A stretch of DNA of 64,000 nt from an uncultured Acidobacteriota bacterium (GCA_964441405.1 CAYTYP010000013.1:23779-87778), one strand, 5' to 3'; numbered from the stretch's first letter, positions 39,895 to 64,000 are shown. Program-made: numbers and translations. The notes: generated from the sequence alone by a model not told the origin.

Positions 39895-39922
39895 ATGCTT
39901 TTAAATTTTGGGCGGGGTTATT

Positions 39923-46804: not shown

Positions 46805-48697
46805 TCATTGCAGAACTCCTCCGAAATTATTTCTCATGCCGGCTAGAAGAGATTCCCAATCTCGAACGAGCTCTATTTCATATTCCCACCAGGGATCGTT
46901 TTGCGAAGTGTCGCCGGACGACAATGTAAATACCTTTTGAAGCCAATGCAATGAGGTTTCGAAATCGCCCCTGCTGCGCGCCAGATAACTCGCAGCCAAT
47001 AAGGGCGCTTGCGCCATTGGAAACAACGTTGCAGCGCGAGTGAAACATTCGCGGGCTTTCGTATGACGTTCAAGCGCGGCAAATTCATAACCCAGGAATA
47101 GGGAGGCGTAATATTTGAGTTTCGGATTCGTTAAGGTTGCATCCGCTTTCTGCAATTCGGCGATTGCCTTTTTATGATCGCCGAGAAGTCCTAAAACTCT
47201 CCCAAGTCTGAGATGCGCTTCGTTAAAACCCGGATCGGATTCTATGGAATTTGTCAGGAATATAAGCGCTGATTCCAATTCAGGTATTTTAGCGCCATAG
47301 AGATAATGTCTTCCAGGCGGCGGAATAGCGTTTTGGCTTTTCGGTGAAGCGTAACTTTCATGCAGCGCGCCGGCATAAAATAAAAGCTTCGCATCATTCG
47401 GGAAGATTTTCAGCGCTTGCTTAAGATTCTGATCTGCATAGATACGGTCGCGACAACTCAACATATGGGCGGTTGTGGAAATGTACCAAAGTCTCATCGT
47501 TTCGTCTTTTGACGGATTTGCAGGCAAGGAGTTGAGCAATAATCGAGCGAACTCCCAATGCTGCCCGCCGCTGGTCGCTATTCCAATGCCGTCATGGACC
47601 AAACCTATGTCTGAATCGGGGGCATCGTCCCTTCCGGTTTCCAGTCGCAAGACGGAAATATCCGTATGCAGTAAAACCCCACGTTTCAAAATCGGATTGA
47701 GATCCTTTGCGAGCTTCAGTTTGCCTTTAAAAGATTCTTTGAATTCAAGGTAGCAGTTTTTGAGCGAATTTGGGATCTCATGGCTGCGCGTCATTTTCTT
47801 CCCGGTCTGTTCAACGACAACGCTGATAATGGCTTCTATATCGCTTATGGGCCAGCTCCCGATTTTAACGGCGGCTTCGTCCATGGCGCCCGGCATGTGT
47901 TGGGCTGCTGATGTTTGCCAATCCTCTGCTTTTCGGATCCAGTAGTTGAGGTCTTCCACTTCGCTGAGTTTCTTTTCTTTCCCGAATAGTTCGATGAAGG
48001 AGGCGCTGACCTCTCCGGGCTTCCTCAGGAGTGAAGCTTTCCGATATTCGGAAATAGCTTTGTTTAAATCTCCCTCTCCGAGCCAGATCCCGCCTAATAG
48101 GGCATAGTTCTCCCCATTCCGGGGATCCAGCCGGATGGCTTTTTCCACTTCGGCAATCGCGGCTTTTGTATCCTTTTTTTTTGCAAGAGCGAGGCCAAGT
48201 TCTATGTGGTAATTGGCGTTTGAAGGTTCGAGCCGCGCAGCTTCCCTGTATTCGCCTAGGGCGGCATCCGGATTGCTCGACTGCAAAAAGCCCAGCATAT
48301 AATGCGATTCGGCGTCGTCAGGCTTCAGTCGAACAGATTCCTGATAGGCGGCCAATGAGTCTTTTCTGTTATTGAAGAGCCAGTGAACGAAACCCAGATT
48401 TTTCCATAATTCGACGTTGGCAGGCAGGCTTTTTATTGCTCGTCGGTATATTTTGACCGCCTCCTCATAATGTTTAAGAGCTTTGGTTTTGTCGCCGCTG
48501 CGTTGGTGCATATAGCCATTGATGATCCAGGCTTCGGCTTTTTGGGCTTCGGAACCGGCCTGCTGTAATTGGGCAATGGATTGAGCCGGATCGATCCACA
48601 GCAATGCATTTACAAACAGGCATGCCATGATTCGAGAGAGCCTGGATCCTTTACTGGGGGCGTTTGCATTGCCGGGGGCTTGAATGATCGAATGCAT
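46805..48697 (-). CDS. TPR-repeat protein
   Basis: Multiple 34-residue TPR-like repeats (W..G.....G....A...Y..A). Gene adjoins and is coupled to the neighbouring VWA genes. Confidence 0.7.
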   Translation of the reverse strand: MHSIIQAPGNANAPSKGSRLSRIMACLFVNALLWIDPAQSIAQLQQAGSEAQKAEAWIINGYMHQRSGDKTKALKHYEEAVKIYRRAIKSLPANVELWKNLGFVHWLFNNRKDSLAAYQESVRLKPDDAESHYMLGFLQSSNPDAALGEYREAARLEPSNANYHIELGLALAKKKDTKAAIAEVEKAIRLDPRNGENYALLGGIWLGEGDLNKAISEYRKASLLRKPGEVSASFIELFGKEKKLSEVEDLNYWIRKAEDWQTSAAQHMPGAMDEAAVKIGSWPISDIEAIISVVVEQTGKKMTRSHEIPNSLKNCYLEFKESFKGKLKLAKDLNPILKRGVLLHTDISVLRLETGRDDAPDSDIGLVHDGIGIATSGGQHWEFARLLLNSLPANPSKDETMRLWYISTTAHMLSCRDRIYADQNLKQALKIFPNDAKLLFYAGALHESYASPKSQNAIPPPGRHYLYGAKIPELESALIFLTNSIESDPGFNEAHLRLGRVLGLLGDHKKAIAELQKADATLTNPKLKYYASLFLGYEFAALERHTKARECFTRAATLFPMAQAPLLAASYLARSRGDFETSLHWLQKVFTLSSGDTSQNDPWWEYEIELVRDWESLLAGMRNNFGGVLQ

Positions 48698-48699
48698 TT

Positions 48700-49629
48700 T
48701 CAGTCTTTTTTTTCGTTGGCGGGGCCCGAGAAATAGCCGGACCGCGCCAGGATTTTTGCCTTGTGGTTTTTGACTCGGATTTTAAGTTGATGCCAGCCGT
48801 CACGCGATACGCCGGTTGGCGAGTAAGTCAAAAGATATCGATGGCGGAATTCTTCGAGAATGTCGAGAAAAACGCGACCAAGATCTTGTATTGATTCGAC
48901 TTCAAGTAAAGAACCGCCGGTTAATCCGCTGAGATCGTGTAGAAAGGTTTTGTTCGGAAGGCGGCGGGTGGTTACGGCATAGACGACGGCAGTGCCGCGA
49001 ATGGCGCTCTCCAGCACTGCCTTATCGGGCAGACTGCTTGAAGTGTCCAGTCCGTCGGTGAATACGATAACCATCGGCCGATCGCGTTTCGATTCGGCCA
49101 ATACCAGGCCTGCATAGCTTGCGTCGATAAGCGAGGATTCTCCCAATGGATTGGATTGCGCTTCACGGAGAGTTTTTTTCACATTATTAAAGTCCGCTGT
49201 GAGCGGAGAGCCAAGCTTTATTTGGCGGCTGAAAGTAATAAGCGCGGCCCGGTCCTCACTTTTAAGCCCATCCAGCAGCCCGGAACCGGCGGCTTTCAGG
49301 TTTTTGAGTTTTTCGCCGGCTACGCTGCCGCTCATATCAAAGACCAGAATGGCGCTGATGGGCATCTGCTCAAAGCTTAAAAAAGCGATTTCCTGAAGCT
49401 TGCCGTTATCGCGCACTTCGAAATCGGACGCTTTCAAATCCCGGATCGGCTTTCCATTTTCCGTTATCAGCATATCGATCCGCACCTCTTCAGTTTTAAC
49501 GGAAATGACTGATTGCGGTGCGGAGGATGGGGCTCCGGCTAGGATTGCAAATAAAAACACAATTGTTCCAAGGAGGCCCTGGACTCGTCCAAGTCGATGC
49601 TGAAAGGAAAAACAAAACGGCTTTTTCAT
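48700..49629 (-). CDS. secreted VWA-domain protein (VWFA-related acidobacterial family, short form)
   Basis: Signal peptide. KASDFEVRDNGKLQEIAFLSFE motif and a VWA-like core. Confidence 0.6.
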   Translation of the reverse strand: MKKPFCFSFQHRLGRVQGLLGTIVFLFAILAGAPSSAPQSVISVKTEEVRIDMLITENGKPIRDLKASDFEVRDNGKLQEIAFLSFEQMPISAILVFDMSGSVAGEKLKNLKAAGSGLLDGLKSEDRAALITFSRQIKLGSPLTADFNNVKKTLREAQSNPLGESSLIDASYAGLVLAESKRDRPMVIVFTDGLDTSSSLPDKAVLESAIRGTAVVYAVTTRRLPNKTFLHDLSGLTGGSLLEVESIQDLGRVFLDILEEFRHRYLLTYSPTGVSRDGWHQLKIRVKNHKAKILARSGYFSGPANEKKD

Positions 49630-49955: not shown

Positions 49956-50857
49956 ATGATCAGACCACACGGCAATTATGCCATTGGGATGGGGCCTCAT
50001 AAAAACTATCGGCAATACAAAGAAACGATCGACCGGCTCACGGACGCGATCGATCGGAAGCGTATCGTAGAGATGCGGTATTACTCAGCTTCCCGCAATG
50101 TTCCCGGTGGGTGCAGTCGATAGTGCGAGTCGTCTAATGACGCATGGGTTTGGGTAAAGCGCCTGTCGGCTGGTTGCACCGATAGCGCGTCCCGTTAGGG
50201 ACGCTATGGATTAAGCCCGGCACTTTAGTGCCGGGTTTATAGGAACCCCCAAAGTTTAGTCCCGTAGGGACGGCTGAAAATATATGGTTTGATTTCCGCC
50301 GTCCCGGGACGTGTGCGGAATTGGGCAAGACGCCGATGATGTTCCCAGGAGCGACTTATGGACACTCCATTTATTGACTTGTACTTCCGATTGCACCCGT
50401 TACCGGTCGAAGAGCCGTAGGTCCTTACCGGATATGGTATGCGGCTGGAGGGCTCTATTTGATCGGCTATTGCCATAAGCGCCGGGATGTCCGGATGTTT
50501 GCAATCGAAAGAATCCGATCATTGGCAGTGACGAACAATCCATGCCAGATGCCCCTGGGGTTCGACATCGAGGCGTATGTTCAGGACGCTTTGGTGGTAA
50601 TGCGCGGCAAGCCGATCGAGGTGGAACTCGTGTTCGAGCCCAAGGCGGCGGCATGGGTAAAAGATCGCGAGTGGCATGCCAGCCAGGTTCTTTTACCGGT
50701 GAAGGGCGGCCGTTTGAAGATGCGGTTGAGTGTGGCGGACACGCCTGAACTTGTCGGCTGGATCCTGAGTTTCGGCGCCGGTGTGCGCGTAGTTTCGCCT
50801 GCACGTCTCCGGGAGCGCGTTCTCGCCGAAGCAAAAAATATTTGTGAAAAAGAATAA
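49956..50857 (+). pseudogene. WYL-domain regulator gene (WYL + C-terminal WCX-like domain) interrupted by a miniature insertion
   Basis: Frame 0 reads ...IDRKRIVEMRYYSASRNVPG up to 50108. After the insertion, frame 2 resumes with VTGRRAVGPYRIWYAAGGLYLIGYCHKRRDVRMFAIERI (WYL motif) through a C-terminal domain to the stop at 50857. Confidence 0.65.
50109..50402. mobile_element. non-autonomous miniature insertion (MITE-like) with TIRs and 5-bp TSD
   Basis: Left end GGGTGCAGTCGATAG and right end CTTCCGATTGCACCC form an imperfect TIR. Flanking CCGGT is duplicated at 50104-50108 and 50403-50407. Interior holds GTCCC..GGGAC hairpins at 50187-50204, 50260-50272 and 50300-50311, and CCCGGCACTTTAGTGCCGGG at 50216-50235. 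Confidence 0.55.
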
Positions 50858-51554: not shown

Positions 51555-51668
51555 TTTATGAAATGGATTGATTATTTGGTAATTAATTGGATTGGATTAG
51601 CTTAGAAAAATTACTTTTGGAATTATTTTGGGATTCGTTTGATTGATCATATGGAGGATTTATAGCAA
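51555..51668 (+). promoter_or_regulatory. AT-rich cas3 upstream region with iterated TGGATTG/GGATT direct repeats (candidate promoter/operator)
   Basis: AATGGATTGATTATTTGGTAATTAATTGGATTGGATTAGC...TTTTGGAATTATTTTGGGATTCGTTTGATTGATC immediately upstream of the GGAGG RBS of cas3. Confidence 0.4.
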
Positions 51669-54545
51669 ATGGAAGATTTCAGCAATGATCGAATCAATAA
51701 TGAATTTCTTCGGAAGGCATTGAGGCTGCGAGAAAGTGAAACTCCATTTCCTTGGCAGGAAGAACTTCTGCGACGATTCCTGCGCGGATCTATACCCCCG
51801 GCACTCGATATTCCGACTGGACTGGGCAAAACGGCTGTAATGGCAATCTGGCTTATCGCCCGTGCTGGTGGAGCGGCGCTTCCAAGGCGGCTTGTTTATA
51901 TAGTGGATCGACGAGCTGTTGTTGATCAAGCCACCGATGTGGCCATTGCGCTCCACGATCTGGTCGATAGCAATGCTGACCTGAAGACAAGGCTCAGACT
52001 GGATGATAATCGCTCGCTTCCCATCTCAACGCTTCGTGGTAAACATGTTGATAACCATGAATGGCTTGAGGATCCGTCATCACCTGCAATAATCGTCGGA
52101 ACTGTGGACATGATTGGCTCACGGCTGCTTTTCGAAGGCTATGGCGTTTCTCGGAAAATGCGCCCCTATCATGCGGGACTTCTTGGCGCCGACGCGCTCA
52201 TTGTGCTCGACGAGGCTCATCTTGTGCCGCCATTCGAGATGCTTCTCAAGTTCATTGCCGAAAGAGATGCTGATTTTAGGCCAACCGATAAATTACTGGA
52301 TAAATTGGTGCCGCGATTCAGACTGCTTTCACTTTCAGCAACTGGCCGAACTTTAGGCGAAGACTCTATTAGACTGGAAAAAGCTGATCTAAACCACGAA
52401 GAATTGAAGAAGCGCCTCAATGCTGAAAAGTGCTTATTGCTGAAACTAAACAATGAAGATACTGACAGCGCTCAAACTGAAGCTAATATAAACCAGAAGG
52501 AAAAGTGGAGCATTTCGGAAGAATTGGCAAAGGAGGCCTGGAAGATCGTTGAGAATGGCACAAACAATACCAGAATCATTATTTTTTGTAACTGCCGTAA
52601 GGATGCGAGTGATACGAAGAGCGCCGTAGAGAAACTGGCAAAGGGCGATAAAAAGGCTGGCAAGGGGCCCGTCTTAATCCATTCAGAGCTTTTCGTCGGT
52701 GGACGCAGGATTTATGAGCGCGAAGAGGCCAAGATGCGCCTTGTAAAATTTGGTTTTATTGCAGGGAGTGAACAGACTCCTGATCGACCAACATTTCTCT
52801 TCGCGACATCAGCAGCAGAAGTTGGCGTGGATCTCGACGCCGATCATATGGTATGCGATCTTGTTGCCTGGGAGCGCATGGTTCAGCGGCTTGGTAGAGT
52901 CAATCGAAGAGGTAACTGCACTGCAAATGTTACCGTTGTCATGGAGCCAGAACCAAAACCTAAAAATAAAAAAGAAAAGGATGTAATAAATAAGAAGGCT
53001 AGCGGGAAGTCCTTGGAGGAGAAAGAAATCAAAATCTTAGATGCTTTTGAAGCTCGAGTCCGTGAGTGGAAAAACTATCAGAAGCCTTTCAGACATCTGC
53101 CGCTGATAAGTAATGGTGCATTTGATGCAAGCCCAGGAGCTCTTTCTAATCTAAAACAGCGTGCCGAATCAGACAAAGAGCTTGGGGAAATTTTGAGAAA
53201 TGCAACCACGCCCACCCCTCTGCGGCCTGTCCTCACTCGCGCACTTGTCGATGCATGGTCGATGACTTCTCTCAAGGAACACACCGGACGTCCAATGATC
53301 GATCCGTGGTTGCGTGGATGGAAAAAAGATGAGCTTCATACAAATATTGTATGGCGTGCGCACCTGCCATTACGGTCATCTTCAAAGCCGCCGGCAAAGA
53401 AAGAGATCGAGCAATTCTTTGAGGCTGCTCCACCACATGCCAGTGAAGTATTAGAGGAGGAAACGTATCGAGTCGTCCAGTGGCTTGAAAAGCGGGCTGT
53501 TGCGGTGCTGAAGAATGCAACTCATAACCCGAGCACGACTGTACGACCACTCCTACCCTCCTCCGATGAAGTGGTAGCTTTCATTCTCTCTCGTTCTGGT
53601 GATTTTCAGGACCACCTTAGATTCAAGGATCTCATAACTACCGATAATGGCGATTCTCAAAGCAAGCAACAAATGCGGCTCCGCCAGACGCTGGGCGGAG
53701 CAATTCTTGTGGTCGATTCAATTCTTGGTGGCTTAAAAGACGGGTTGCTTGATGAAAAGGAAGATTCTTTGCCCAAAACCACCGATGATGGTCAAGAGTG
53801 GCTCGGGGAGCATGTCGCTGGCTTCCGTATCCGTAGTGTTCGTGCTGATGAATCCCTCGGATCAGATCCATCGTGGCGAGAACGATTTCGCTTTGCAACC
53901 AAACTCACGGAGGAGGGAGAACCAAGGCTATGGCTCATCGTCGAAAAGTGGCGGCATGAAGCAACAACCGAAGATGATCGATCCTCGTCTCATCCGCAAA
54001 TTTTGGAGGAGCATCAATCATGGGCAGAGGATCGGGCCCGTAATCTTGCACAAAAACTTCAATTGGATGAGCCTTATCTCAAAATGCTTGCAATCGTGGC
54101 TCGTCTGCACGACGAAGGCAAGCGCTTTCGCCGGTGGCAGCGAGGCTTCAATGCATCTAAAGATGGGATATATGCGAAAACAAAGGGGCCGATAAACTAC
54201 GCCTTATTAGATGGCTACCGACATGAGTTAGGTTCTCTTCTTATCGCTGAGAATGACGAAAAGATTAATTCTCTTTCTGAGGAATTACGCGAGCTCGCAC
54301 TACATCTAATCGCTGCCCATCATGGTTTTGCGCGCCCCGTCATTGGCACTCACGGCTGCGAGGATGCCCCGCCATCCGTTGTGGAAACGCGGACTTGTGA
54401 AGTGGCGCTGCGTTTTTCACGCCTTCAGCGGCGTTGGGGCCCATGGGGACTTGCATGGTGGGAAACGCTCCTTCGGGCGGTTGACCAGCAGGCTTCTCGC
54501 GAAAATGATGCCGCTGAATTGGTGATACAAAAGGAGGAGTTCTGA
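51669..54545 (+). CDS. cas3: Cas3 helicase-nuclease with C-terminal HD domain (type I-G/I-U architecture)
   Basis: N-terminal SF2 helicase motifs (DIPTGLGKTAV Walker A, LIVLDEAHL motif II) and C-terminal HD-nuclease motifs (ARLHDEGKRFRRWQ, IAAHHGFARP). 958 aa. GGAGG RBS. Confidence 0.85.
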   Translation: MEDFSNDRINNEFLRKALRLRESETPFPWQEELLRRFLRGSIPPALDIPTGLGKTAVMAIWLIARAGGAALPRRLVYIVDRRAVVDQATDVAIALHDLVDSNADLKTRLRLDDNRSLPISTLRGKHVDNHEWLEDPSSPAIIVGTVDMIGSRLLFEGYGVSRKMRPYHAGLLGADALIVLDEAHLVPPFEMLLKFIAERDADFRPTDKLLDKLVPRFRLLSLSATGRTLGEDSIRLEKADLNHEELKKRLNAEKCLLLKLNNEDTDSAQTEANINQKEKWSISEELAKEAWKIVENGTNNTRIIIFCNCRKDASDTKSAVEKLAKGDKKAGKGPVLIHSELFVGGRRIYEREEAKMRLVKFGFIAGSEQTPDRPTFLFATSAAEVGVDLDADHMVCDLVAWERMVQRLGRVNRRGNCTANVTVVMEPEPKPKNKKEKDVINKKASGKSLEEKEIKILDAFEARVREWKNYQKPFRHLPLISNGAFDASPGALSNLKQRAESDKELGEILRNATTPTPLRPVLTRALVDAWSMTSLKEHTGRPMIDPWLRGWKKDELHTNIVWRAHLPLRSSSKPPAKKEIEQFFEAAPPHASEVLEEETYRVVQWLEKRAVAVLKNATHNPSTTVRPLLPSSDEVVAFILSRSGDFQDHLRFKDLITTDNGDSQSKQQMRLRQTLGGAILVVDSILGGLKDGLLDEKEDSLPKTTDDGQEWLGEHVAGFRIRSVRADESLGSDPSWRERFRFATKLTEEGEPRLWLIVEKWRHEATTEDDRSSSHPQILEEHQSWAEDRARNLAQKLQLDEPYLKMLAIVARLHDEGKRFRRWQRGFNASKDGIYAKTKGPINYALLDGYRHELGSLLIAENDEKINSLSEELRELALHLIAAHHGFARPVIGTHGCEDAPPSVVETRTCEVALRFSRLQRRWGPWGLAWWETLLRAVDQQASRENDAAELVIQKEEF

Positions 54546-55462
54546 TGACAGAAGCATCCATTCCGGTTGATTTATTCAATCCCGGGCAGGTGTTCGCCTG
54601 CCTTGGTTTTCTTGAGGCGGCCGAAATGCTGCTCGGCAATGCGGAGGGCGGCTTCGATTGGAGCATTCATAAGGATATTTTCTTTCGCCTCTGCGCTAAG
54701 GGTGCGAAAAATCCTTTTTCAGTCGTTCTACAGTTCCTTACAACCGCAGATATCATTCCACATAGTTTTACTCAGTGTACTTTGAATTCGATGTTTGACA
54801 GTAATGGAGCCCCTATCTCTGACATCCAAATAGATTGTTCGGGCACATTCCCTTGTCCGGATGTGGACACAATGACATTACCAATCCACCTTGTTGGATT
54901 ACTGAACGATGAAAAATATTTGATTAATTTTAGCCACTGGGCTGATGGATCGAGTCGCAATACTTTTAAACTCTATTCCGGCAACCGATCCGCAGCTGAT
55001 ATTTCGCGCGCCATGCTATTGGGAACTCAAAAGAAGTCAAAGAAGAAACAAGGCGAGATGGAAACGTACGGCCTTCGATCCTTATGGAAGGAGCATCGAT
55101 CAGAGCTGGAAAAAAACCCATTCAATGTTCTAACACCGCTTGGGGGGAGTTTTAATTTTGATCCAAGAGGTGCATGGACAGGAATAGACGCCGGGTATTC
55201 TCCAAATGATCAGAAACATGCCATGGCAGCCTCGCCAGTTGTCGAGATCCTGGCGGCTCTCGGGCTTGAGCACGCACGGCCGGATGAATTCAAGACTCGC
55301 CAGGTGCGATATGCAGCCTGGAACTCAATAATTCCGCCTTTTCTCGCGAGAGCTGCTCTATCCGGTGCGCTCTTAAACATTCCGCTAAGGAAGTTTCAAT
55401 TCACCCTTTTTCTTTCGGGGAAGAATAAGGTCATCACATTTGCAAAGGAGGAAATACAATGA
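54545..55462 (+). CDS. Cascade-like effector subunit, 305 aa, in the large-subunit (Cas8u) position; family unassigned
   Basis: ATGA overlap with the cas3 stop, so translationally coupled. No motif could be assigned by eye. Confidence 0.45.
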   Translation: MTEASIPVDLFNPGQVFACLGFLEAAEMLLGNAEGGFDWSIHKDIFFRLCAKGAKNPFSVVLQFLTTADIIPHSFTQCTLNSMFDSNGAPISDIQIDCSGTFPCPDVDTMTLPIHLVGLLNDEKYLINFSHWADGSSRNTFKLYSGNRSAADISRAMLLGTQKKSKKKQGEMETYGLRSLWKEHRSELEKNPFNVLTPLGGSFNFDPRGAWTGIDAGYSPNDQKHAMAASPVVEILAALGLEHARPDEFKTRQVRYAAWNSIIPPFLARAALSGALLNIPLRKFQFTLFLSGKNKVITFAKEEIQ

Positions 55463-56697
55463 CGGAAGTAACGGAAGTAATCACTGAGGAGGTTTTGAAT
55501 AATTGGGCAACGGATGAAAAGGGCCCTGTGGCCCTTCACATGAAACAGAGACTCTTGCCTGTAGAAGTGTTAGATGAAGAGACTGGCATAATATTCCCTC
55601 CCACGTATGCCGACATCGGATACAACATCGATACGCTTTTTGACGGCACGAGGGTTGCTACTATCGACAGTATCGGTTCGCAAGCCAACCGACTTGAGCC
55701 GAACTTCAAATCCAATTCACAGAACAAGGAGGAGTGGCTAGTTCCGCAAATTGAGATCGTACTGCGTTCGGAACCGTGCGGAGAATGTGAGGCGTGCAAG
55801 GAAGTCAAACGCGTAGGTGGAAAGAGCAAAGCAAGCGGCTGTATAAAGCCAAAGCAGGTGAAACGTTCGATCTTCGATCTTGCGCACCGCGCTGCCGATG
55901 CCGTTGTCCAGTCTTCCCCTGGACTTAATGGGCTCATCAAAGATGCATTCAAGGCGCTTCAAGAAGGCGATGCCCTGCCTCTTTGTTCATTAGCACCGAC
56001 ATCGCTGGTTTTCGGTGTGTGGGATTCGCGCGGAGGAAGCGGCGAAAAGCGCCCTCGCTTGGTTCGCTCTATTATTCGGGCCTGGGACGTAGAACCGCTG
56101 CATGCTGCAGCACAGTTTAATTCTGTCTGGAAAGCTCTCGATGAAGAGCAAAAAGAGGATTTGAAAAAGGAGGCGACGGCAAAGAAGGTCGAGTTGTCGG
56201 AGAAAGGCTTCGCGGATGCTCCGGCGGTTTTTCGCAAAACCAAGATTCAGCTATATCGCGAGGGTACGCCGAATCCAGAAGCCCGTGTTCTTGGTGGCAT
56301 TTTCGTCAAGGGGCGAATTGAGCGCGACGTTACCGTGAATCTTGTTGCGCTCCGTGGCCTTTACGGTAAATATGACATGACAAATGCAATTCGCAAATAT
56401 CTTCTCGGTCTTTCTCTACTTGCCGCGACGGCAGATATCGACTTGTTCCTTCGTGAGGGCTGCCACCTGCGCTATGCGGCAGAAGATAATTGGTTCGAAG
56501 TGCCTCGCAGGGGCAACCCAACGCTATTGAAATTCCCTACTGATTCGAAATTCTTAATGAATTATATAATGGAAGCTTCAAAAGGATTCAGATCAGCATG
56601 GCCGGAGAAGTTGGAATATGTATTTAATTTAAGTGAGGCAAAAAGGCTGCTTGCGAAAAATACAAATGATCATGAAGAAGCAGTTGGAGGTGCATGA
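55459..56697 (+). CDS. Cascade-like effector subunit, 412 aa, probable Cas7 (Csb1-like)
   Basis: ATGA overlap with the upstream gene. The size and position match the Cas7 slot. Glycine-containing loop LGGIFVKGRIERDV. Confidence 0.45.
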   Translation: MTEVTEVITEEVLNNWATDEKGPVALHMKQRLLPVEVLDEETGIIFPPTYADIGYNIDTLFDGTRVATIDSIGSQANRLEPNFKSNSQNKEEWLVPQIEIVLRSEPCGECEACKEVKRVGGKSKASGCIKPKQVKRSIFDLAHRAADAVVQSSPGLNGLIKDAFKALQEGDALPLCSLAPTSLVFGVWDSRGGSGEKRPRLVRSIIRAWDVEPLHAAAQFNSVWKALDEEQKEDLKKEATAKKVELSEKGFADAPAVFRKTKIQLYREGTPNPEARVLGGIFVKGRIERDVTVNLVALRGLYGKYDMTNAIRKYLLGLSLLAATADIDLFLREGCHLRYAAEDNWFEVPRRGNPTLLKFPTDSKFLMNYIMEASKGFRSAWPEKLEYVFNLSEAKRLLAKNTNDHEEAVGGA

Positions 56698-59105
56698 TGT
56701 CCAGTGCACTTGCAATCCATGTGCGCTTTCATGATGGGCGCTATCATGGCGACAGCGACTGGCCTCCGTGTCCCGCCCGGCTTTTTCAGGCACTTGTCAG
56801 CGGCGCCGGGCTCAGTGGCCCGATCAGCGAGAAGTTTTCTAATGCGCTCAAATGGCTGGAGAGCATTCCGCCCCCACTGATCGGTGCGCCGCAAGCGCAG
56901 CGCGGCCAGCGCGTCATGTTTTATATGCCGAACAATGATATGGATATAGTGGGCGGTGATCCGCTACGAATTGCGGAAATTCGCACCGCAAAAAAGTATT
57001 TCCACCCCTATTTATTCGATTTAAATATTCCGTTCCTCTTCCTCTGGCAAAATATAACTGATGAACACACCCATTATGCCAACGAGATTTGCGAGGCTGC
57101 GTACCATCTTTATCAACTCGGTCGTGGCATCGATATGGCATGGGCGTGGGCCGATTTGCTCAACATGGCTAAGGTCGATGAACTACTTGCGAGCTATCCT
57201 GGGCAAATACATCGTCCGTCAACCGGAATCGGCGAAAATCATACAAATACACTTTTATGTCCGCATCCGGGGTCATTGGAGTCCATTTGCAAACGCTACC
57301 AGGCCTATAGTCACAGGTTTATGATTGCGAGGAAAGGCAAGACGGTAAAGCAAACTTTCCAGAAGGCGCCACAAGCGAGCTTCCGGTCCGTTTCATACGA
57401 CAATCCGCCAACACGCTATATTTATGAGCTTCGCAGGTCACCGGATCCGTTGTTGTTTTTTCCGTGGCCATTATCAGAAGTATCGAAGCTTATTGTTTGC
57501 TTGCGGGATGGAGCAGTGGATCGGCTCAAGACGGCGTTGCCTGACCAAGCTGCTCAAATTGATCGTGTGCTTGTAGGGCGAAAGTCTGATGGCACAAATG
57601 CCGGTTCGACAGCCGAACGGGTAAGAATTATTCCTCTACCATCTGTCGGACATCCTCACGCTGATCATGCAATTCGGCGGATTCTGGTTGAAGTGCCCGC
57701 TGCCTGTCCGCTGAGAGCAGATGACGTATCATGGGCATTTTCGGCACTTGTTGAGCCTGTTGATATCGCAACAGGCGAAATATATCCACTCGTTCTGATA
57801 TCCACTGCTGATGAAAATATACTGCGCCACTTTGGCATGGGAGAAAACTCCGAAGCTTCAGTATGGCGCACGATTACGCCAATTGCTGTTCCAGAGGTAG
57901 CCGGCAGGAGAAGAATCGAGCCAACCATACAGCTCGCCCAAGCCAAATCGGGAGCGGAACGTGTTTACGAGCAACATATCGCCGCAGCGTCCATAATCCA
58001 GGCGTTGAGACATGCGGAGATTCGTGAGCAACCCGTGGCAGTCAAGGTTCAGCGAGAACCTTTTGAGGGTAATGGCGAACGGGTGGAAGCCTTTGCTAAC
58101 AGAACAAGATTTTATTCCCGGAGCCTCTGGCATGCCGAGATCACCTTTTTAAAGCCTCTCTCGGGTCCTCTGGTGGTCGGTGACGGTCGCTTCTTCGGCC
58201 TGGGTGTTATGGTTCCAAACGCTTTGAAAAGGACGCATGTTGCCCAATTTGTACTGGATTCTACGGTGTTGCCGCAAATCACTGAGGCGCTGCCGGTGGC
58301 GGAGTCTGCCCGCCGGATATTGATGGGCATAGGCGGCCGTATGTTCTCCGCTCCTGATGGATCGCGGGGGCGTTCTGATGTTTTTTCAGGTAAAAATGAA
58401 AATGGAAGACCGTTGGAAGGGCATGGCCATGCTTATTACCTTCCAACGGATGAGGACCAGGATGGCTATATTGACCATTTGACGATCATTGCAGTTGGTG
58501 GGTTCAACGAGCAGGATCTCAAGGTCCTGGATGCGTTGCGAGAATTAAAAAGCAAAGAGCGGGAAGCATCCGGCCATCCGCTTCGAACTTTACTGATAGG
58601 TATAGGAAGGTTGGACGAATACCGCCCCTACTTGATGCAGCCATCAAGAATATGGCGTTCTGCAACACCATTCATCGCTTCACGCTTTCTTAAAAAGCGA
58701 GGCACAAAACGCGATCCTGTTGAATTCTGGAATAATCCACATGATTTTCTCATTGCTGTTTTGAGGGAGGAAATGGCTAGGTTTATTGCCCGGCGGTTTG
58801 AATTGAAGGATCTAAATCCGGATAAAATCAAGATCAGGCCACTTTTAGATGAAAACAGTGTTTTTCGAATCGGCCGGCAAAATCTTCGACCGATCCAGTT
58901 TAAAAGGTTTCGTCAGAAGAAGGGGGATGATGGAGGCAATCGTCCGGCAGGATCATTTGAAATTGATTTTGGCCGCGATGTTAGCGGTCCTATCGCTCTC
59001 GGCCACTCCTCCCATTTCGGCTTGGGACTGTTTGTTCCGGTAAATGAGCAAAATGAATCTGGCGATGGAACTGTTATTAATGATCCTATTATTGGTATGA
59101 TATGA
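56694..59105 (+). CDS. enlarged Cas5-Cas6 fusion (Csb2-like), 803 aa
   Basis: N-terminus RFHDGRYHGDSDWPPCPARLFQALV resembles the Cas5u/Csb2 family N-terminal signature. Two RAMP-type glycine-rich loops: LVVGDGRFFGLGVMVP mid-protein and ALGHSSHFGLGLFVP near the C-terminus. ATGATG overlap with the upstream gene. Confidence 0.55.
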   Translation: MMSSALAIHVRFHDGRYHGDSDWPPCPARLFQALVSGAGLSGPISEKFSNALKWLESIPPPLIGAPQAQRGQRVMFYMPNNDMDIVGGDPLRIAEIRTAKKYFHPYLFDLNIPFLFLWQNITDEHTHYANEICEAAYHLYQLGRGIDMAWAWADLLNMAKVDELLASYPGQIHRPSTGIGENHTNTLLCPHPGSLESICKRYQAYSHRFMIARKGKTVKQTFQKAPQASFRSVSYDNPPTRYIYELRRSPDPLLFFPWPLSEVSKLIVCLRDGAVDRLKTALPDQAAQIDRVLVGRKSDGTNAGSTAERVRIIPLPSVGHPHADHAIRRILVEVPAACPLRADDVSWAFSALVEPVDIATGEIYPLVLISTADENILRHFGMGENSEASVWRTITPIAVPEVAGRRRIEPTIQLAQAKSGAERVYEQHIAAASIIQALRHAEIREQPVAVKVQREPFEGNGERVEAFANRTRFYSRSLWHAEITFLKPLSGPLVVGDGRFFGLGVMVPNALKRTHVAQFVLDSTVLPQITEALPVAESARRILMGIGGRMFSAPDGSRGRSDVFSGKNENGRPLEGHGHAYYLPTDEDQDGYIDHLTIIAVGGFNEQDLKVLDALRELKSKEREASGHPLRTLLIGIGRLDEYRPYLMQPSRIWRSATPFIASRFLKKRGTKRDPVEFWNNPHDFLIAVLREEMARFIARRFELKDLNPDKIKIRPLLDENSVFRIGRQNLRPIQFKRFRQKKGDDGGNRPAGSFEIDFGRDVSGPIALGHSSHFGLGLFVPVNEQNESGDGTVINDPIIGMI

Positions 59106-59124
59106 GCGTAGAATAATAATTGAA

Positions 59125-59481
59125 TTGTCCGGAACGATAATGAAAGAGATTAAAGAGCTTCAAGAAAAAGAACGGATGGCCCTTGAAGAACTGAAATTGA
59201 GGATCAGCTCGGAATTGCCGGAACCATCTTGCCGGCTCACTCTTTTCGGATCAAAGGCAAGAGGCGATGCTGAGCCCGATTCCGATATTGATGTTCTGGT
59301 TGAATTGGACGCACTCCATGTTTCTCCGGTTTATAAGCGGAAACTGCGGCGCATCGCAGGAGAGTTGTCCATAAAATTCCGCGTTTTGCTTTGTCTCCTC
59401 ATCATTGATCGGAGCACGCGTGAAGAGAAAGGCGATTACGCCATTTTGCAGAATATTCGTGAAGAGGGAATTTCCGTATGA
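59125..59481 (+). CDS. minimal nucleotidyltransferase (MNT/MntA-type antitoxin)
   Basis: LFGSKARGDAEPDSDIDVLV (GSxxxG...DxD) motif. 118 aa. Confidence 0.75.
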   Translation: MSGTIMKEIKELQEKERMALEELKLRISSELPEPSCRLTLFGSKARGDAEPDSDIDVLVELDALHVSPVYKRKLRRIAGELSIKFRVLLCLLIIDRSTREEKGDYAILQNIREEGISV

Positions 59482-59876
59482 GTGGGAAGGAAATTCGCGA
59501 ATTGCTCCAAAAAGCCGACCGAAGCCTTAAGGCTGCTGAAATATTACTGCAACAAGGCTATTGTGACTTCTCCATATCACGCGCCTACTATGCAATGTTT
59601 TATGCCGCGCAGGCTATTCTTCTTACCAAAGATGTTCGTCGAGTAAAACATTCCGGTATTATCGCCGCATTTAATGAATTGTTTGTGCATTCAGGTCAAT
59701 TGCCCCATGATCTCTTTATTTCATTGCGCGATGCTTTTGAGGATCGAGCCGAAGGCGACTACGGTTTAAATGTAATTTCTGAAGAACAAGCTGTCTCGTG
59801 TCTTTTGGAAGCACGTAAATTTGTTGCTGAAATAGACAAGAAATTGGGAGCATGGTCGGAATCCCATGACCATTAG
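59478..59876 (+). CDS. HEPN-domain protein (HepT-type toxin partner)
   Basis: ATGA overlap with the MNT gene. SRAYYAMFYAAQAILL HEPN core helix. 132 aa. Confidence 0.65.
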   Translation: MSGKEIRELLQKADRSLKAAEILLQQGYCDFSISRAYYAMFYAAQAILLTKDVRRVKHSGIIAAFNELFVHSGQLPHDLFISLRDAFEDRAEGDYGLNVISEEQAVSCLLEARKFVAEIDKKLGAWSESHDH

Positions 59877-59906
59877 TCATTTCGGTGGTTTGTTAAGAAC
59901 GATAGA

Positions 59907-60410
59907 TCATTTCATTCTTAATTTTATATCGATCAGGATTGTTGCATCGGCAAGGTGTTGTGTTTCGGAGTAGACGACTATGATGCCTTTGATTTTGCCG
60001 GAGGATTTACCACCGGTGAATTGCTGCTTGAGGTCCTCTGATAGAGCGCTGGACAGGAGCAGTTCTTTTGCTTTATCGGTGAAATAAAAAGTCGTCCGGA
60101 AAGAACCTTTAATAACCGAAAGCCAGAAGATGGTTTTCTTCTTTAGAGTGACTTTCAAAAGCCAGCCTTTCACGTCACGGTAATAGCGCCACTCTCTTGT
60201 AAAATCTGGATGATCGGCGTCGAGATGTTTGAAAAGCGAATTCCATAGCGGTTTCGTTTTCCCGATATGCGCGAAAATAATCTCATCCGTAGGGCGTTCG
60301 TTCGGGTTGGATAAAGCAATCGGTTCCATAAACCATCTCCGGTCGGAAAATTCAAATAATACACTGATTCCATGAGCTATAAAAAAAAGAATCTTTGAAT
60401 ATGAGCGCAC
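59907..60410 (-). CDS. hypothetical protein embedded in the cas locus (opposite strand)
   Basis: 167-aa ORF (the likely start at MEPIALSNPNERP gives about 140 aa). No family recognised by eye. Confidence 0.4.
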   Translation of the reverse strand: MRSYSKILFFIAHGISVLFEFSDRRWFMEPIALSNPNERPTDEIIFAHIGKTKPLWNSLFKHLDADHPDFTREWRYYRDVKGWLLKVTLKKKTIFWLSVIKGSFRTTFYFTDKAKELLLSSALSEDLKQQFTGGKSSGKIKGIIVVYSETQHLADATILIDIKLRMK

Positions 60411-60496
60411 TATTCAATGGGAACCTCTACGCTTTCTTCCAACCAATGATACAGTTGATGAATGAAAGATGAAGTGCGGCCGATATGTAATATCGT

Positions 60497-60787
60497 ATGC
60501 GTACGAGCTATCTGGTTTGCTACGATATTGCCGACGACAAAAGGCTGCGAAGCGTATTCAAAAAAATGCGCAGCTACGGCGATCACCTTCAGTTCTCCGT
60601 TTTCGAGTGCCAGTTGTCTCCGGCCGATCTCGTACGTTGCCGCACGGAACTGGATGCGATCATCAATCATAGGGAAGACCAGGTGCTTTTTGTGAATATC
60701 GGGCCGTCCGAGGGGCGAGGCGATCGGGTGATTACCGCCTTGGGCAAGCCCTACATCCATATAGACAGCCCTTGCATCGTGGTGTGA
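60497..60787 (+). CDS. cas2: Cas2
   Basis: 96 aa. YLVCYDIADDKRLRSVFKKMRSYGDHLQFSVFEC is the Cas2 N-terminal signature. Confidence 0.85.
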   Translation: MRTSYLVCYDIADDKRLRSVFKKMRSYGDHLQFSVFECQLSPADLVRCRTELDAIINHREDQVLFVNIGPSEGRGDRVITALGKPYIHIDSPCIVV

Positions 60788-62562
60788 AAGTGGAAACGAC
60801 TCAGGAAATTTCTAAGGAAGAAGGCAGAGAGCCTGTCCCGGAATACCTGCCCGCCCGTATGCTGAATGAGTTTGTCTATTGTCCGCGGCTTTTTTTCTAT
60901 GAATGGGTAGATGGAGTTTTCGAGGAAAGCGCGGATACGCTTGAAGGAAAAGCCCAGCATAAGAGGGTGGATGAGACGGTTTCATCCCTCCCTGCTCCCG
61001 AAGAACTTGAAGATGAGTCCATGCGTTCGCGGTCCGTAAGCATGTCCAGCGACCGCTATGGAGTGATTGCCCGTATGGACCTGGTGGAGGTTGAAAACGG
61101 AACCGTCACGCCCGTGGATTATAAGCATGGCGATCCCCGGGAGACGAAAACAGGCATCGAACTCTGGCCTGCGGACAAATTTCAATTGGCGACTCAGGGA
61201 TTGATTCTTAAAGACAACGGATACCGGTGCGATGAAGGATTAGTCTATTACTTCAAGACAAAACAAAGAGTACGCGTTCAATTAGATGAATTCCTGATTG
61301 CGGAAACTCTTCAGTTGATCAAGGATGCGCGGACAACAGCCGCCTCCGGACAGATCCCGACTCCATTGACTGATTCGCCAAAATGCCAGGGGTGTTCTCT
61401 TGTAGGCATATGCCTGCCGGATGAAACTTCGGAACTTTCGGCCGCGAGGACGGTTGAGGAGGCCTCCCAGCTTTCATTTTTTGAAGAAAATGAAACGGTA
61501 AAACATGTTTCGTCTTCCGTTCGAAGGCTGATCACGCCCAGGGACGATCTGCGCCCTGTTTATATCAATACACATGGCATGCGCATTGGTAAATCAGGCG
61601 AAGTCCTGCAGATTCGCGACAAGGATGCACTGAAACAGGAAATCAGGATTCATGAGATGTCGCAACTCAATATTATGGGAAATGTCCAGGTGTCCACCCA
61701 GGCGATACAAAGCCTTTGCCAGGAAGACATTCCTATCTGTTATTTTTCTCAGGGCGGCTGGTTCTACGGCATTACGGCCGGAATGAATGTCAAAAATGTC
61801 TTTTTAAGAAAAATTCAATATCGTCTTTCCGATGAAACCTGGTTCGCGCTGTCGTTCGCCAGACAACTCATCTCCGGAAAAATCAAAAATCAACGGACAA
61901 TGCTGCAAAGAAATCATATCGAGCCGAAAGCCATTACTTTACAGCAGATGAAAACGATGGCCGAAAGAGCCGAGCAGGCAGGAAGCCTTGAAGAATTGCT
62001 GGGGATCGAAGGGAACGCGGCAAGATTATATTTCGGCGATTTTAACGGCATGATCAAAGTGGAAGAGGGAGACGAAACCGGCAAACAGTTTGCATTCGAT
62101 TTTTCAAAGAGAAACCGGCGCCCTCCGAGGGATGCGGTGAACGCCATGCTTTCTTATTGCTATAGCCTTCTGGCCAAGGACTGCACGATCGCTTGTTATG
62201 CCGTCGGCTTTGATCCGATGATGGGCTTTTACCATCAACCCCGCTTTGGGAGACCATCCCTTGCTCTTGACCTGATGGAACCGTTTCGCCCCCTTATCGG
62301 CGATTCCGTGACGCTCAGCGCTATCAATAATCGCATGGTGCAGAGTAGGGATTTTGTGGAAGCAGGGCCTTCGGTTTCACTTACACCCTCAGGGCGAAAA
62401 GGTCTGTTGCATGCTTATGAATTACGCATGGATGCACTTGTCACTCACCCGATCTTTGATTATCGCGTAAGTTATCGTAGACTGTTGGAGATTCAGGCAA
62501 GGCTGCTTGCTCGATATTTGAATAATGAGATTGCCGAATATCCGGTATTTGTAACTCGATGA
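60772..62562 (+). CDS. cas1: Cas4-Cas1 fusion protein
   Basis: N-terminal Cas4 RecB-nuclease/Fe-S part (LNEFVYCPRLFFYEW ... CQGCSLVGIC). C-terminal Cas1 motifs (LGIEGNAARLYF, VNAMLSYCYSLL, ALDLMEPFRPLIGD). The exact start is ambiguous (TTG 60772, GTG 60784/60790 or ATG 60859). Confidence 0.85.
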   Translation: MHRGVKVETTQEISKEEGREPVPEYLPARMLNEFVYCPRLFFYEWVDGVFEESADTLEGKAQHKRVDETVSSLPAPEELEDESMRSRSVSMSSDRYGVIARMDLVEVENGTVTPVDYKHGDPRETKTGIELWPADKFQLATQGLILKDNGYRCDEGLVYYFKTKQRVRVQLDEFLIAETLQLIKDARTTAASGQIPTPLTDSPKCQGCSLVGICLPDETSELSAARTVEEASQLSFFEENETVKHVSSSVRRLITPRDDLRPVYINTHGMRIGKSGEVLQIRDKDALKQEIRIHEMSQLNIMGNVQVSTQAIQSLCQEDIPICYFSQGGWFYGITAGMNVKNVFLRKIQYRLSDETWFALSFARQLISGKIKNQRTMLQRNHIEPKAITLQQMKTMAERAEQAGSLEELLGIEGNAARLYFGDFNGMIKVEEGDETGKQFAFDFSKRNRRPPRDAVNAMLSYCYSLLAKDCTIACYAVGFDPMMGFYHQPRFGRPSLALDLMEPFRPLIGDSVTLSAINNRMVQSRDFVEAGPSVSLTPSGRKGLLHAYELRMDALVTHPIFDYRVSYRRLLEIQARLLARYLNNEIAEYPVFVTR

Positions 62563-62747
62563 TTGATGCTGCGAGCGGTTAGGTAATGAAGAAAAAGCAG
62601 GAGGCGTTCGCATCCGGGTTTAGCTATAAAAACAAAGCACTTACGTTGATCGGCGATTCTTACTAGAAATATATTATGTTGTTATTAGGCAAGCGTTCGA
62701 AAGGCACAACCCAGATCTTTGAAAATATGAGTTTTATGCGAGAAGCT
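62563..62747 (+). promoter_or_regulatory. CRISPR leader
   Basis: 185-bp AT-rich non-coding segment between the cas4-cas1 stop and the first repeat. Confidence 0.6.
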
Positions 62748-64000
62748 ATTTCCGCGATTGAAAGATCGCGGCCCCATTGAAGCGACCAAACCATAGCGCA
62801 CCCGGCAACCAGGATCGAAATTTCCGCGATTGAAAGATCGCGGCCCCATTGAAGCGTGCAAATTTGCACAAGGTCGGTTCTGGCGCCCTGATTTCCGCGA
62901 TTGAAAGATCGCGGCCCCATTGAAGCTCTGCGGGATGCACGAATACCAGCGAGAGCCGCCCGATTTCCGCGATTGAAAGATCGCGGCCCCATTGAAGCCA
63001 GGTTATAGGGTAGAGGTCTATCCAATTCGGAGCTATTTCCGCGATTGAAAGATCGCGGCCCCATTGAAGCACCATTTCATCCTGGCCGTGCGTGATGTTT
63101 TCAGGCATATTTCCGCGATTGAAAGATCGCGGCCCCATTGAAGCTTGATGTGTCATTTCGCGTCTCCTTTTTCGATTTTGATTTCCGCGATTGAAAGATC
63201 GCGGCCCCATTGAAGCTGATATAACGGCAACGTCAATTGGTTGTGTTCAACCACATCCAGATTTCCGCGATTGAAAGATCGCGGCCCCATTGAAGCATTG
63301 GAACGGATATCACAAAGACCATGCTCGATAGATTTCCGCGATTGAAAGATCGCGGCCCCATTGAAGCATGTAGGCCCGGACGGTGAAGGGCGTTCCAGGC
63401 GTGCATTTCCGCGATTGAAAGATCGCGGCCCCATTGAAGCTTTGGAATTTTCGGTGGATTTTGATTCAATGGGTCGGATTTCCGCGATTGAAAGATCGCG
63501 GCCCCATTGAAGCTCGTAGTGCTGTCGTTCCTGTCTCTTGTGCTGATCAATTTCCGCGATTGAAAGATCGCGGCCCCATTGAAGCATTCCGTCAATCGTT
63601 CCTGTTGGCGTCTCGGTGTATGATTTCCGCGATTGAAAGATCGCGGCCCCATTGAAGCTCCCCGCTACCATTCGCGGACATTTTCATCCGTTAATTTCCG
63701 CGATTGAAAGATCGCGGCCCCATTGAAGCCGCCCGTAACAAGCGGGTCGGTCTGCGCCTTGATTAATTTCCGCGATTGAAAGATCGCGGCCCCATTGAAG
63801 CCCGTGTGGATTTCCAGGGGCGGCTCCTCATCTTCCCAATTTCCGCGATTGAAAGATCGCGGCCCCATTGAAGCTATAAAACTGACGGCTTTGTACAAGC
63901 AGGCGTTGCGTGAATTTCCGCGATTGAAAGATCGCGGCCCCATTGAAGCACTGCTCCGATAATCGGTTTAATACTCTCTACTTCCAATTTCCGCGATTGA
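62748..64000 (+). CRISPR. CRISPR array, 36-bp repeat ATTTCCGCGATTGAAAGATCGCGGCCCCATTGAAGC; 17 complete repeats plus a truncated 18th at the window edge
   Basis: Repeats start at 62748, 62820, 62891, 62963, 63035, 63109, 63181, 63261, 63332, 63405, 63478, 63550, 63623, 63694, 63766, 63839, 63914 and 63987 (truncated). Spacers are 35-39 nt, with one of 44 nt. The repeat has an internal 7-bp palindrome CCGCGAT/ATCGCGG. Confidence 0.95.

Follow-up and report, generated by a model that had tools for sequence, protein, structure and literature searches.

Lying at one end of a 64,000-nucleotide (nt) stretch of DNA from an uncultured Acidobacteriota bacterium (GCA_964441405.1 CAYTYP010000013.1:23779-87778; the whole stretch is referred to here as the window) is a CRISPR-Cas locus of type I-G (positions 51555-64000). 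It is an intact, ordinary type I-G system of the already described Cas8g2/Csx14 (Geobacter-type) variant, and its Csb2 protein, 803 amino acids (aa) long, is a canonical two-domain Csb2 (Cas5-like and Cas6-like) to which a second Cas6 is fused at the C terminus. The explanation that best accounts for the whole, and which we consider likely, is that of an I-G locus whose Csb2 uses the appended Cas6 to cut the precursor of the CRISPR RNA (pre-crRNA and crRNA, respectively); which domain cuts the RNA we infer from the gene families, domain folds, distribution and residue patterns observed.

A sequence-only reading of the window had assigned the locus to type I-G and flagged its effector gene set as non-canonical. 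The assignment holds for every defining feature tested, and the sequence features listed in that reading are all where it had placed them. The main result is nevertheless a negative one, as the flagged gene set belongs to an ordinary representative of an I-G variant already described; the anomaly is largely explained by existing knowledge, and what remains is a modest, testable sub-variant observation.

Architecture of the 803-residue Csb2

Residues 1-508 of Csb2 are referred to here as the core; from residue 5 onwards they span the whole TIGR02165 profile (positions 1-491 of 492), at 334 bits where 45 is the cut-off. Taken alone, residues 509-803 hit that profile in its latter half (positions 252-492, E 1.3e-19), and they also match the C-terminal half of a PADLOC Cas5/6g model. 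In structures predicted for the two halves of the protein, the core has matches to both Cas5 and Cas6 folds, and residues 509-803 form a two-RRM Cas6 fold with a C-terminal G-rich loop (G-loop), homologous to the C-terminal half of Csb2 itself and not to a Cas8 or Cas11 fold. The two Cas6-related units are referred to below as the inner (core) and outer (appended) domains. Searches of the Protein Data Bank (PDB) with the sequences of the 305-, 412- and 803-aa effector proteins gave no meaningful match and retrieved no atomic model of an I-G subunit.

The sequence-only reading had described an enlarged Cas5/6 slot and offered domain redistribution as one account of it. The enlargement is real, Csb2 being ~270-290 aa longer than the two-domain Csb2 (~530 aa) that characterized systems have, but no part of Cas8 has moved into it: the additional piece is the second Cas6 domain.

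The small large subunit

Preceding csb1 and csb2 is a 305-aa large subunit that matches TIGR04106 (Cas8g2) from end to end (residues 4-293 against profile positions 2-270 of 282; E 1.7e-46, 159.1 bits, cut-off 125). The slot that had been judged under half its usual size thus holds a full-length member of the GSU0052 family, an outcome that the sequence-only reading had itself named as one that would refute its claim. Its premise of a 'cas8u2/csx17' protein of ~700 aa had merged two separate families, Csx17 (Cas8g1) of ~700 aa and GSU0052 (Csx14/Cas8u2/Cas8g2) of ~280-300 aa, and the apparent size anomaly arises from this conflation. No ~700-aa Csx17 is present, as NCBIfam and PADLOC scans of ten open reading frames (ORFs) gave only Cas8g2-type matches, for the 305-aa protein.

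Three alternative proteins are known at this position in systems with the GSU0054 signature: Csx17, which is a large Cas8; Csx14, which is GSU0052; and Csb3 in Bifidobacterium animalis (Makarova 2011, PMC3150331). Csx14/GSU0052 was termed there a 'deteriorated Cas8' with a C-terminal helical domain; the Geobacter gene was called cas8u2 by Almendros 2019 (PMC6547450), and size of the large subunit is the chief difference between I-G variants (Shangguan 2022, PMC9638904). In locus L091, with a Csb2 93% identical to GSU0054, the corresponding genes encode 914, 296, 363 and 554 aa, and the contig stops right after csb2. A small large subunit is a known state of the Geobacter reference type.

Fused and separate Cas6 among relatives

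A scan of one genome per GTDB species, seeded on the Csb2 core of this clade, turned up core relatives in 304 species genomes, and metagenomes gave at least 536 matches; gene sets were counted in the best 80 of the 304 loci. A long fused Csb2 is present in 66 of the 80, and nearly all of the 80 have cas3g, a Cas8g2 of ~290-320 aa and a Csb1 of ~360-430 aa followed by csb2. The 305/412/803-type gene set, which had been proposed as a possible undescribed sub-variant, is therefore the majority form among them. Short-form Csb2 accounts for 13 loci. In five of them (L009, L026, L028, L030 and L034) a complete Cas6 gene stands alone, placed immediately after csb2 or else upstream of cas3; in L010 the contig ends in a partial Cas6 ORF, three contigs end too early to judge, and four have no Cas6 in view. 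Locus L001, which encodes P0004 and was found separately, has its standalone Cas6 upstream of cas3.

By length, the homologues of the 803-aa protein form two classes, one of ~510 aa and one of ~720-800 aa. Residues 509-803 had 1838 matches among 1.84 billion representative proteins, the best of which, with 40-61% identity, fall either on standalone proteins 275-350 aa long or on the C-terminal half of a two-domain Csb2 (470-570 aa). P0128, a two-domain protein of this group, belongs to a canonical Csx17-type locus, L089 (in order: WYL regulator, cas3 of 820 aa, a 720-aa protein, csb1 of 313 aa, csb2 of 526 aa, cas4/cas1 and cas2). The closest relatives of the core region are the short forms P0003-P0005 (66-69% identity), a neighbour-joining tree of Csb2 cores serving as a rough guide and solely for this point. 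As relatives hold the extra Cas6 either fused or separate, and the nearest core relatives are short, its fusion and fission appear to be evolutionarily labile, judging from these sequences.

Csb2 with an extra Cas6 is abundant in public genomes, where it is annotated merely as Csb2. The majority of Cas8g2-type I-G systems in public genomes carry either such a Csb2 or an adjoining standalone Cas6, and they are under-studied: the I-G studies consulted, on Thioalkalivibrio, Geobacter and Bifidobacterium, did not examine a form of this kind, and literature searches under the names I-G, Csb2 and Cas8g found no published description of the extra domain.

Two relatives have further arrangements. In L061 (9995-13214; L062 is near-identical) the fused outer Cas6 has Asn at the position of the G-loop His, and a standalone 268-aa Cas6 follows csb2, giving three Cas6-like domains within one locus. 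On the metagenomic contig L007 (1777-20852), cas3, cas8g2, csb1 and a long csb2 lie amid a gene with a Cas10 palm domain and two large genes with repeat-associated mysterious protein (RAMP) domains, together with two unannotated genes of 807 and 495 aa and then cas2 and cas4/cas1; this may be an I-G/type III hybrid locus.

Catalytic residues of the inner and outer domains

Csb2 of Thioalkalivibrio sulfidiphilus (Tsu) requires H503, the His of the G-rich loop (PMC9638904), and that of B. animalis requires H520 and D530 (bioRxiv 10.1101/2022.08.19.504415). The end of Tsu Csb2 (GFGCHYGLGLF, in the Makarova alignment) aligns with GHSSHFGLGLF of the outer domain, placing H774 at the His position. 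The second candidate catalytic position is an 'SGH' His in other Csb2 proteins with Phe or Tyr in the G-loop; it corresponds, in the Makarova alignment, to a 'GHG' His that is invariant in the GSU0054 clade (ILGHGES; H320 in GSU0054). At these two positions the inner domain of the window's Csb2 has R296 and F500, and the outer domain has K567 ('SGH') and H774 (G-loop).

The same pattern extends across the clade. At the G-loop column His is found in 67 of 67 two-domain Csb2 representatives, and the inner domains of the window's clade have Phe or Tyr in 86 of 86, never His; Arg stands at their 'GHG' position (VGRK, R296 here). Among 71 fused outer domains the G-loop His is present in 46 by motif and in three more by eye. 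Of 54 outer domains that could be aligned, 53 have His at one or both sites; in the remaining one the 'SGH' His is kept and the alignment is gapped at the G-loop column.

Counted over 158 non-redundant loci, the 'GHG' His and the extra Cas6 are nearly exclusive. Where the His is present, the extra Cas6 is fused in 0 loci, standalone in 1, not seen in 37 and undecidable in 34; where it is absent, the figures are 69, 7, 5 and 5, so that 76 of the 81 His-less loci with enough sequence to judge have an extra Cas6. Csb2 cores that keep the 'GHG' His almost never have an extra Cas6, and cores without it almost always do. The sole Geobacter-clade locus that has lost the 'GHG' His (ILGRVES), L113 (945-4489), has a standalone Cas6 directly downstream of csb2, and is an independent case of His loss with an extra Cas6 inside that clade.

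A simpler argument, that the inner domain is dead because its G-loop His is Phe, was dropped. GSU0054 also has Phe there (GGGRFYGLGLF) and belongs to a functional system, which means that losing the G-loop His alone does not inactivate a Csb2. The case for a non-catalytic inner domain rests on the loss of both His positions, and to that extent the domain is predicted to be inactive.

Relation to characterized I-G systems

With the Geobacter sulfurreducens I-G system (formerly I-U; GSU0051-GSU0054 and GSU0057-GSU0058), described by Makarova 2011 (PMC3150331) and Almendros 2019 (PMC6547450), the locus shares a Cas3 with a C-terminal HD domain, Csb1, the Cas4/Cas1 fusion and Cas2, as well as the small GSU0052-family large subunit (296 aa in L091) and the GSU0054-family Csb2 core; metagenomic loci of the Geobacter clade have the same 36-nt repeat type with a ATTGAAGC tail. 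Unlike the 803-aa protein with its third domain, GSU0054 is a two-domain protein of ~538 aa, and it keeps the 'GHG' His where Arg296 stands here. Csb1 of the window is ~50 aa longer, with a Cys4 insertion, and genes for MNT, HEPN and DUF3788 proteins are inserted in the locus. The third Csb2 domain, the lost 'GHG' His, the Csb1 Cys4 insertion and the toxin-antitoxin-like insertion are the sole differences from this reference; the first two are differences within the Cas8g2 variant and do not exclude the locus from I-G.

The Tsu I-G Cascade (PMC9638904) has the same overall I-G logic and a Csb2 with a Cas5-like N-terminal part and a Cas6 domain, but its large subunit is Csx17/Cas8g1 (~700 aa), its Cas6 domain is single and its Csb1 is shorter. 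The outer domain described here is a Cas6 of the same class as that of Csx17-type Csb2, being 48% identical to the Cas6 domain of P0128, with a G-loop that aligns with that of Tsu. The I-G system of B. animalis (Csb1/Csb2/Csb3; bioRxiv 10.1101/2022.08.19.504415) differs in having Csb3 in place of Cas8g2, and a single Cas6. Closest in content are the split relatives (L028 of Rehaibacterium terrae, L009, L030, L034 and L001), with the same Cas8g2, Csb1 and Csb2 core, Arg at the 'GHG' site and the same class of His-bearing Cas6; in these a gene of its own (~270-330 aa) encodes the Cas6 and lies directly after csb2 or upstream of cas3, whereas here the Cas6 is fused in frame.

Alternative explanations

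An assembly or sequencing artefact that merged csb2 with a downstream standalone cas6 might be suspected from the nearest core relatives (P0003-P0005), which are short forms, and from the split arrangements that exist in L009, L028, L030 and L034, and upstream of cas3 in L001. Such a merger is so improbable that it carries almost no weight. The independent Logan assembly L003 has the identical, uninterrupted gene, which also disposes of the frameshift that the sequence-only reading had named as a risk to its claim; the same class of fused domain occurs in P0002, P0006, P0007 and P0013 from other samples (the first three being homologues at 44-56% identity); and the junction is compact, the Cas6 profile starting at residue 512, four residues past the end of the core match at 508, with no intergenic remnant. 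A domain-redistributed or undescribed sub-variant of I-G, with an enlarged Cas5/6 that took over functions of the large subunit from a shrunken Cas8, has in its favour that the summed effector length (305+412+803 = 1520 aa) is near that of the Csx17-type L089 (720+313+526 = 1559 aa), and all 66 fused long Csb2 genes, from a scan seeded on this clade's Csb2 core, adjoin a small Cas8g2. We regard it as improbable. The small subunit is a known family that the reference Geobacter locus pairs with a Csb2 of ~538 aa, so that a small Cas8 has no need of a large Csb2; the added 295 aa have a Cas6 fold and not that of Cas8 or Cas11; and the gene set is the majority form in the best 80 of 304 relatives.

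In a further alternative, the outer domain would be a superfluous copy or one in decay, or would act on a different array, with the inner domain or Csb1 still processing crRNA; the following points favour this or weigh against an RNA-cutting role for the outer domain. Geobacter-type Csb2 functions without an extra Cas6, also with Phe at the G-loop, and the G. sulfurreducens system interferes in Escherichia coli with only cas3, cas8u2, cas7 and cas5/6 cloned (PMC6547450). RNase activity reported for B. animalis Csb1 in a preprint could make either Cas6 domain dispensable (bioRxiv 10.1101/2022.08.19.504415). Of the 71 fused outer domains, 18 have another residue in place of the G-loop His (Tyr 14, Phe 2, Asn 2), L061 has both a fused and a standalone Cas6, and clades that have the extra domain do not differ in repeat type from those that lack it (for example, ATTTCCGCGATCACACGATCGCGGCCCCATTGAAGC in L138). 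Catalytic roles, including that of the 'GHG' His, are assigned by residue homology; the correlation of His loss with the extra Cas6, uncorrected for phylogeny, is largely a contrast of two clades in which L113 is the only clearly independent replicate, and five His-less loci have no extra Cas6 in the fetched flanks. The three leader-proximal spacers had 0 protospacer matches in IMG/VR (searched with every sixth base wild), so that this search recovered neither targets nor a protospacer-adjacent motif. Even so, a dispensable outer domain seems unlikely to us: most of the 80 species-level genomes, from many phyla, hold the domain in a conserved, intact state; at least one of its two His positions is kept in essentially all 54 aligned examples; the inner domain of the window's clade has lost both, and that of the Geobacter clade has not; and in L113 the same pairing arose independently. 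An outer domain that cuts pre-crRNA is the reading carried forward here.

Proposed working of the system

By homology with the characterized I-G systems of Thioalkalivibrio, Geobacter and Bifidobacterium, the array would be transcribed from the leader; each repeat hairpin would be bound, and a cut 4 nt 3' of its stem would give the crRNA an 8-nt 5' handle, AUUGAAGC. Csb1 (Cas7g) would polymerise along the crRNA, Csb2 and Cas8g2 would complete the Cascade, target DNA would be degraded by Cas3g through its C-terminal HD nuclease, and Cas4/Cas1 with Cas2 would acquire spacers. Within Csb2 there would be a division of labour, as suggested by the residue patterns: the inner Cas6-like domain may have been kept as a structural, RNA-binding and non-catalytic module for Cascade assembly, and the outer Cas6 (H774) is the candidate pre-crRNA endonuclease, probably staying on the 3' hairpin.

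Applied to the whole of the large Cas8g2-type clade, the proposal is that the inner Cas6-like domain is a His-less pseudo-nuclease retained solely for Cascade assembly and that a Thioalkalivibrio-type Cas6, taken on as a separate gene or through more than one fusion, cuts pre-crRNA in its place; we hold this wider form tentatively, as a possibility that falls somewhat short of even. If true, it would make Csb2 a subunit with three RAMP domains and give Cascade an end structure unlike that of any solved I-G complex. That loss of the resident domain's His accompanies gain of a second Cas6 predicts a catalytic hand-over between paralogous domains. Type I-G is under development as a compact genome-editing system, and which domain processes crRNA affects the way such loci are minimised.

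Organization of the locus

Table 1. Features of the type I-G locus and its flanks (window positions).
Feature	Position	Strand	Details
cas3g	51669-54545	+	958 aa; TIGR02621 E 1.5e-174, residues 23-944 vs profile 11-854/854
cas8g2 (GSU0052/Csx14/Cas8u2 family), small large subunit	54545-55462	+	305 aa; TIGR04106; PADLOC Cas8g models
csb1 (Cas7g backbone subunit)	55459-56697	+	412 aa; TIGR02570 E 4.4e-24; PF09617 E 1.2e-27
csb2, whole gene	56694-59105	+	803 aa; TIGR02165 E 2.2e-99, profile 1-491/492
csb2 core, residues 1-508	56694-58217	+	Cas5-like (~1-260), inner Cas6-like (~261-508)
csb2 C-terminal extension, residues 509-803	58218-59105	+	second (outer) Cas6 domain, H774 in GHSSHFGLGLF
MNT-type nucleotidyltransferase, putative antitoxin, not a cas gene	59125-59481	+	PF01909 E 2.5e-9
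HEPN-domain protein, putative toxin partner	59478-59876	+	PF05168 E 7.1e-18
DUF3788 gene	59907-60410	-	PF12663 E 3.7e-26
cas2	60497-60787	+	96 aa; PF09827 E 7.1e-21; PADLOC Cas2g E 8.2e-29
cas4/cas1 fusion (Cas4g/Cas1g)	60772-62562	+	NF049935 E 1e-227, residues 25-596 vs profile 1-546/546
Leader, 185 bp between cas1 and first repeat	62563-62747	+	read from sequence
CRISPR array	62748-64000	+	17 repeats and start of an 18th at window end
WYL/WCX transcription regulator remnant, upstream of cas3	49956-50857	+	PF25583, PF13280

Each of the six cas genes scores above the curated cut-off of its I-G model and is matched end to end (csb1, 85 bits against a TIGR02570 cut-off of 38; cas4/cas1, 757 bits against an NF049935 cut-off of 560). 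Cas3g has its helicase at the N terminus and its HD nuclease at the C terminus, TIGR02621 matching over its full length, with the motifs that the sequence-only reading had picked out at residues 51 (GLGKT), 180 (LDEAH), 813 (LHDEGK) and 882 (AAHHG); those of Cas4/Cas1 are likewise in place at residues 36 (YCPRLFFYEW), 205 (CQGC), 412 (IEGNAARLYF) and 500 (DLMEPFRP). The true start of cas4/cas1 is probably near 60784, and the gene call in L003 is 592 aa. Overlaps of 1-4 nt between neighbouring effector genes are compatible with translational coupling. Family scans found no separate cas11 or cas6 gene among the ORFs between 51669 and 62562; the extra Cas6 sits inside csb2. GC content in the locus (48.5%) is near that of the rest of the window (50.5%), and Rfam and tRNA scans of the whole window gave no match.

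The array contains 17 copies of a 36-nt repeat, ATTTCCGCGATTGAAAGATCGCGGCCCCATTGAAGC, without variation among them, and is cut off by the window end once an 18th copy has begun. Its 16 spacers are 35-44 nt long; one (63217-63260) is 44 nt and the other 15 are 35-39 nt. None has a match elsewhere in the window, even with as many as 8 mismatches allowed. In the predicted fold of the repeat RNA (-12.1 kcal/mol) a GAAA loop closes an 8-bp stem, after which come CCCC and then AUUGAAGC. The I-G repeat type is 36 nt with a TTGAAGC tail (PMC11237760), and Tsu Csb2 cuts 4 nt below the hairpin, giving an 8-nt handle (PMC9638904); ending in CCCC and then ATTGAAGC, the repeat matches this type and fits the Tsu cleavage geometry.

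Csb1 aligns over its full length with Csb1 of related loci. Inserted at residues 106-128 (55774-55842) is a zinc-knuckle-like Cys4 segment, CGECEACKEVKRVGGKSKASGC, with weak matches to PDB zinc fingers of the CXXC kind. An insertion resembling it (C-x2-C-x2-C...C) is found in 23 of 83 Csb1 proteins of the window's clade as against 0 of 66 of the Geobacter clade, and GSU0053 is without it.

The position of cas2 ahead of cas4-cas1, which had been thought unusual, recurs in many related loci, including the closest relative (L004), L007, L015, L026, L073 and L082, and many of the Geobacter clade (for example, L097, L107, L120, L121, L126 and L140). A HEPN/MNT pair and an opposite-strand gene do separate the effector and adaptation modules (59125-60410), as had been reported. 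Among the loci examined this MNT-HEPN-DUF3788 insert occurs only here and in the identical assembly L003; in L004 cas2 directly follows csb2 with nothing between. The pair and the DUF3788 gene are a locus-specific insertion unrelated to the CRISPR genes. The MNT and HEPN genes overlap by 4 nt, the MntA model scores 30 on the MNT protein against a cut-off of 60, and no R-x4-6-H motif was found in the HEPN protein; these two genes may therefore fall outside the standard (type VII-like) HepT/MntA toxin-antitoxin systems. An MNT-type gene lies in the same position in L113, after the standalone Cas6 and before cas2. Opposite the cas2 region, a 116-aa ORF (60410-60760, minus strand) without a family match is probably not a gene.

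Upstream of cas3, an ORF at 50459-50857 encodes a WCX domain (PF25583, E 1.2e-19) and the end of a WYL domain (PF13280). The gene is split: an upstream fragment (49956-50123) is separated from it by a hairpin-rich insertion of ~330 bp (~50124-50458) that has no second copy in the window. Intact WYL/WCX genes flank the I-G loci L005 and L089, a WYL gene lies just downstream of a standalone Cas6 on the 1.6-kb contig L090, and the remnant is possibly a former regulator of the locus. Elsewhere in the window are three paralogous molybdopterin subunits of the xanthine-dehydrogenase/aldehyde-oxidase type (28601-30868, 31978-34392 and 39908-42382), an aldehyde:ferredoxin oxidoreductase (36304-38178), and a minus-strand cluster (46805-49629) that includes a TPR protein and a VWA protein.

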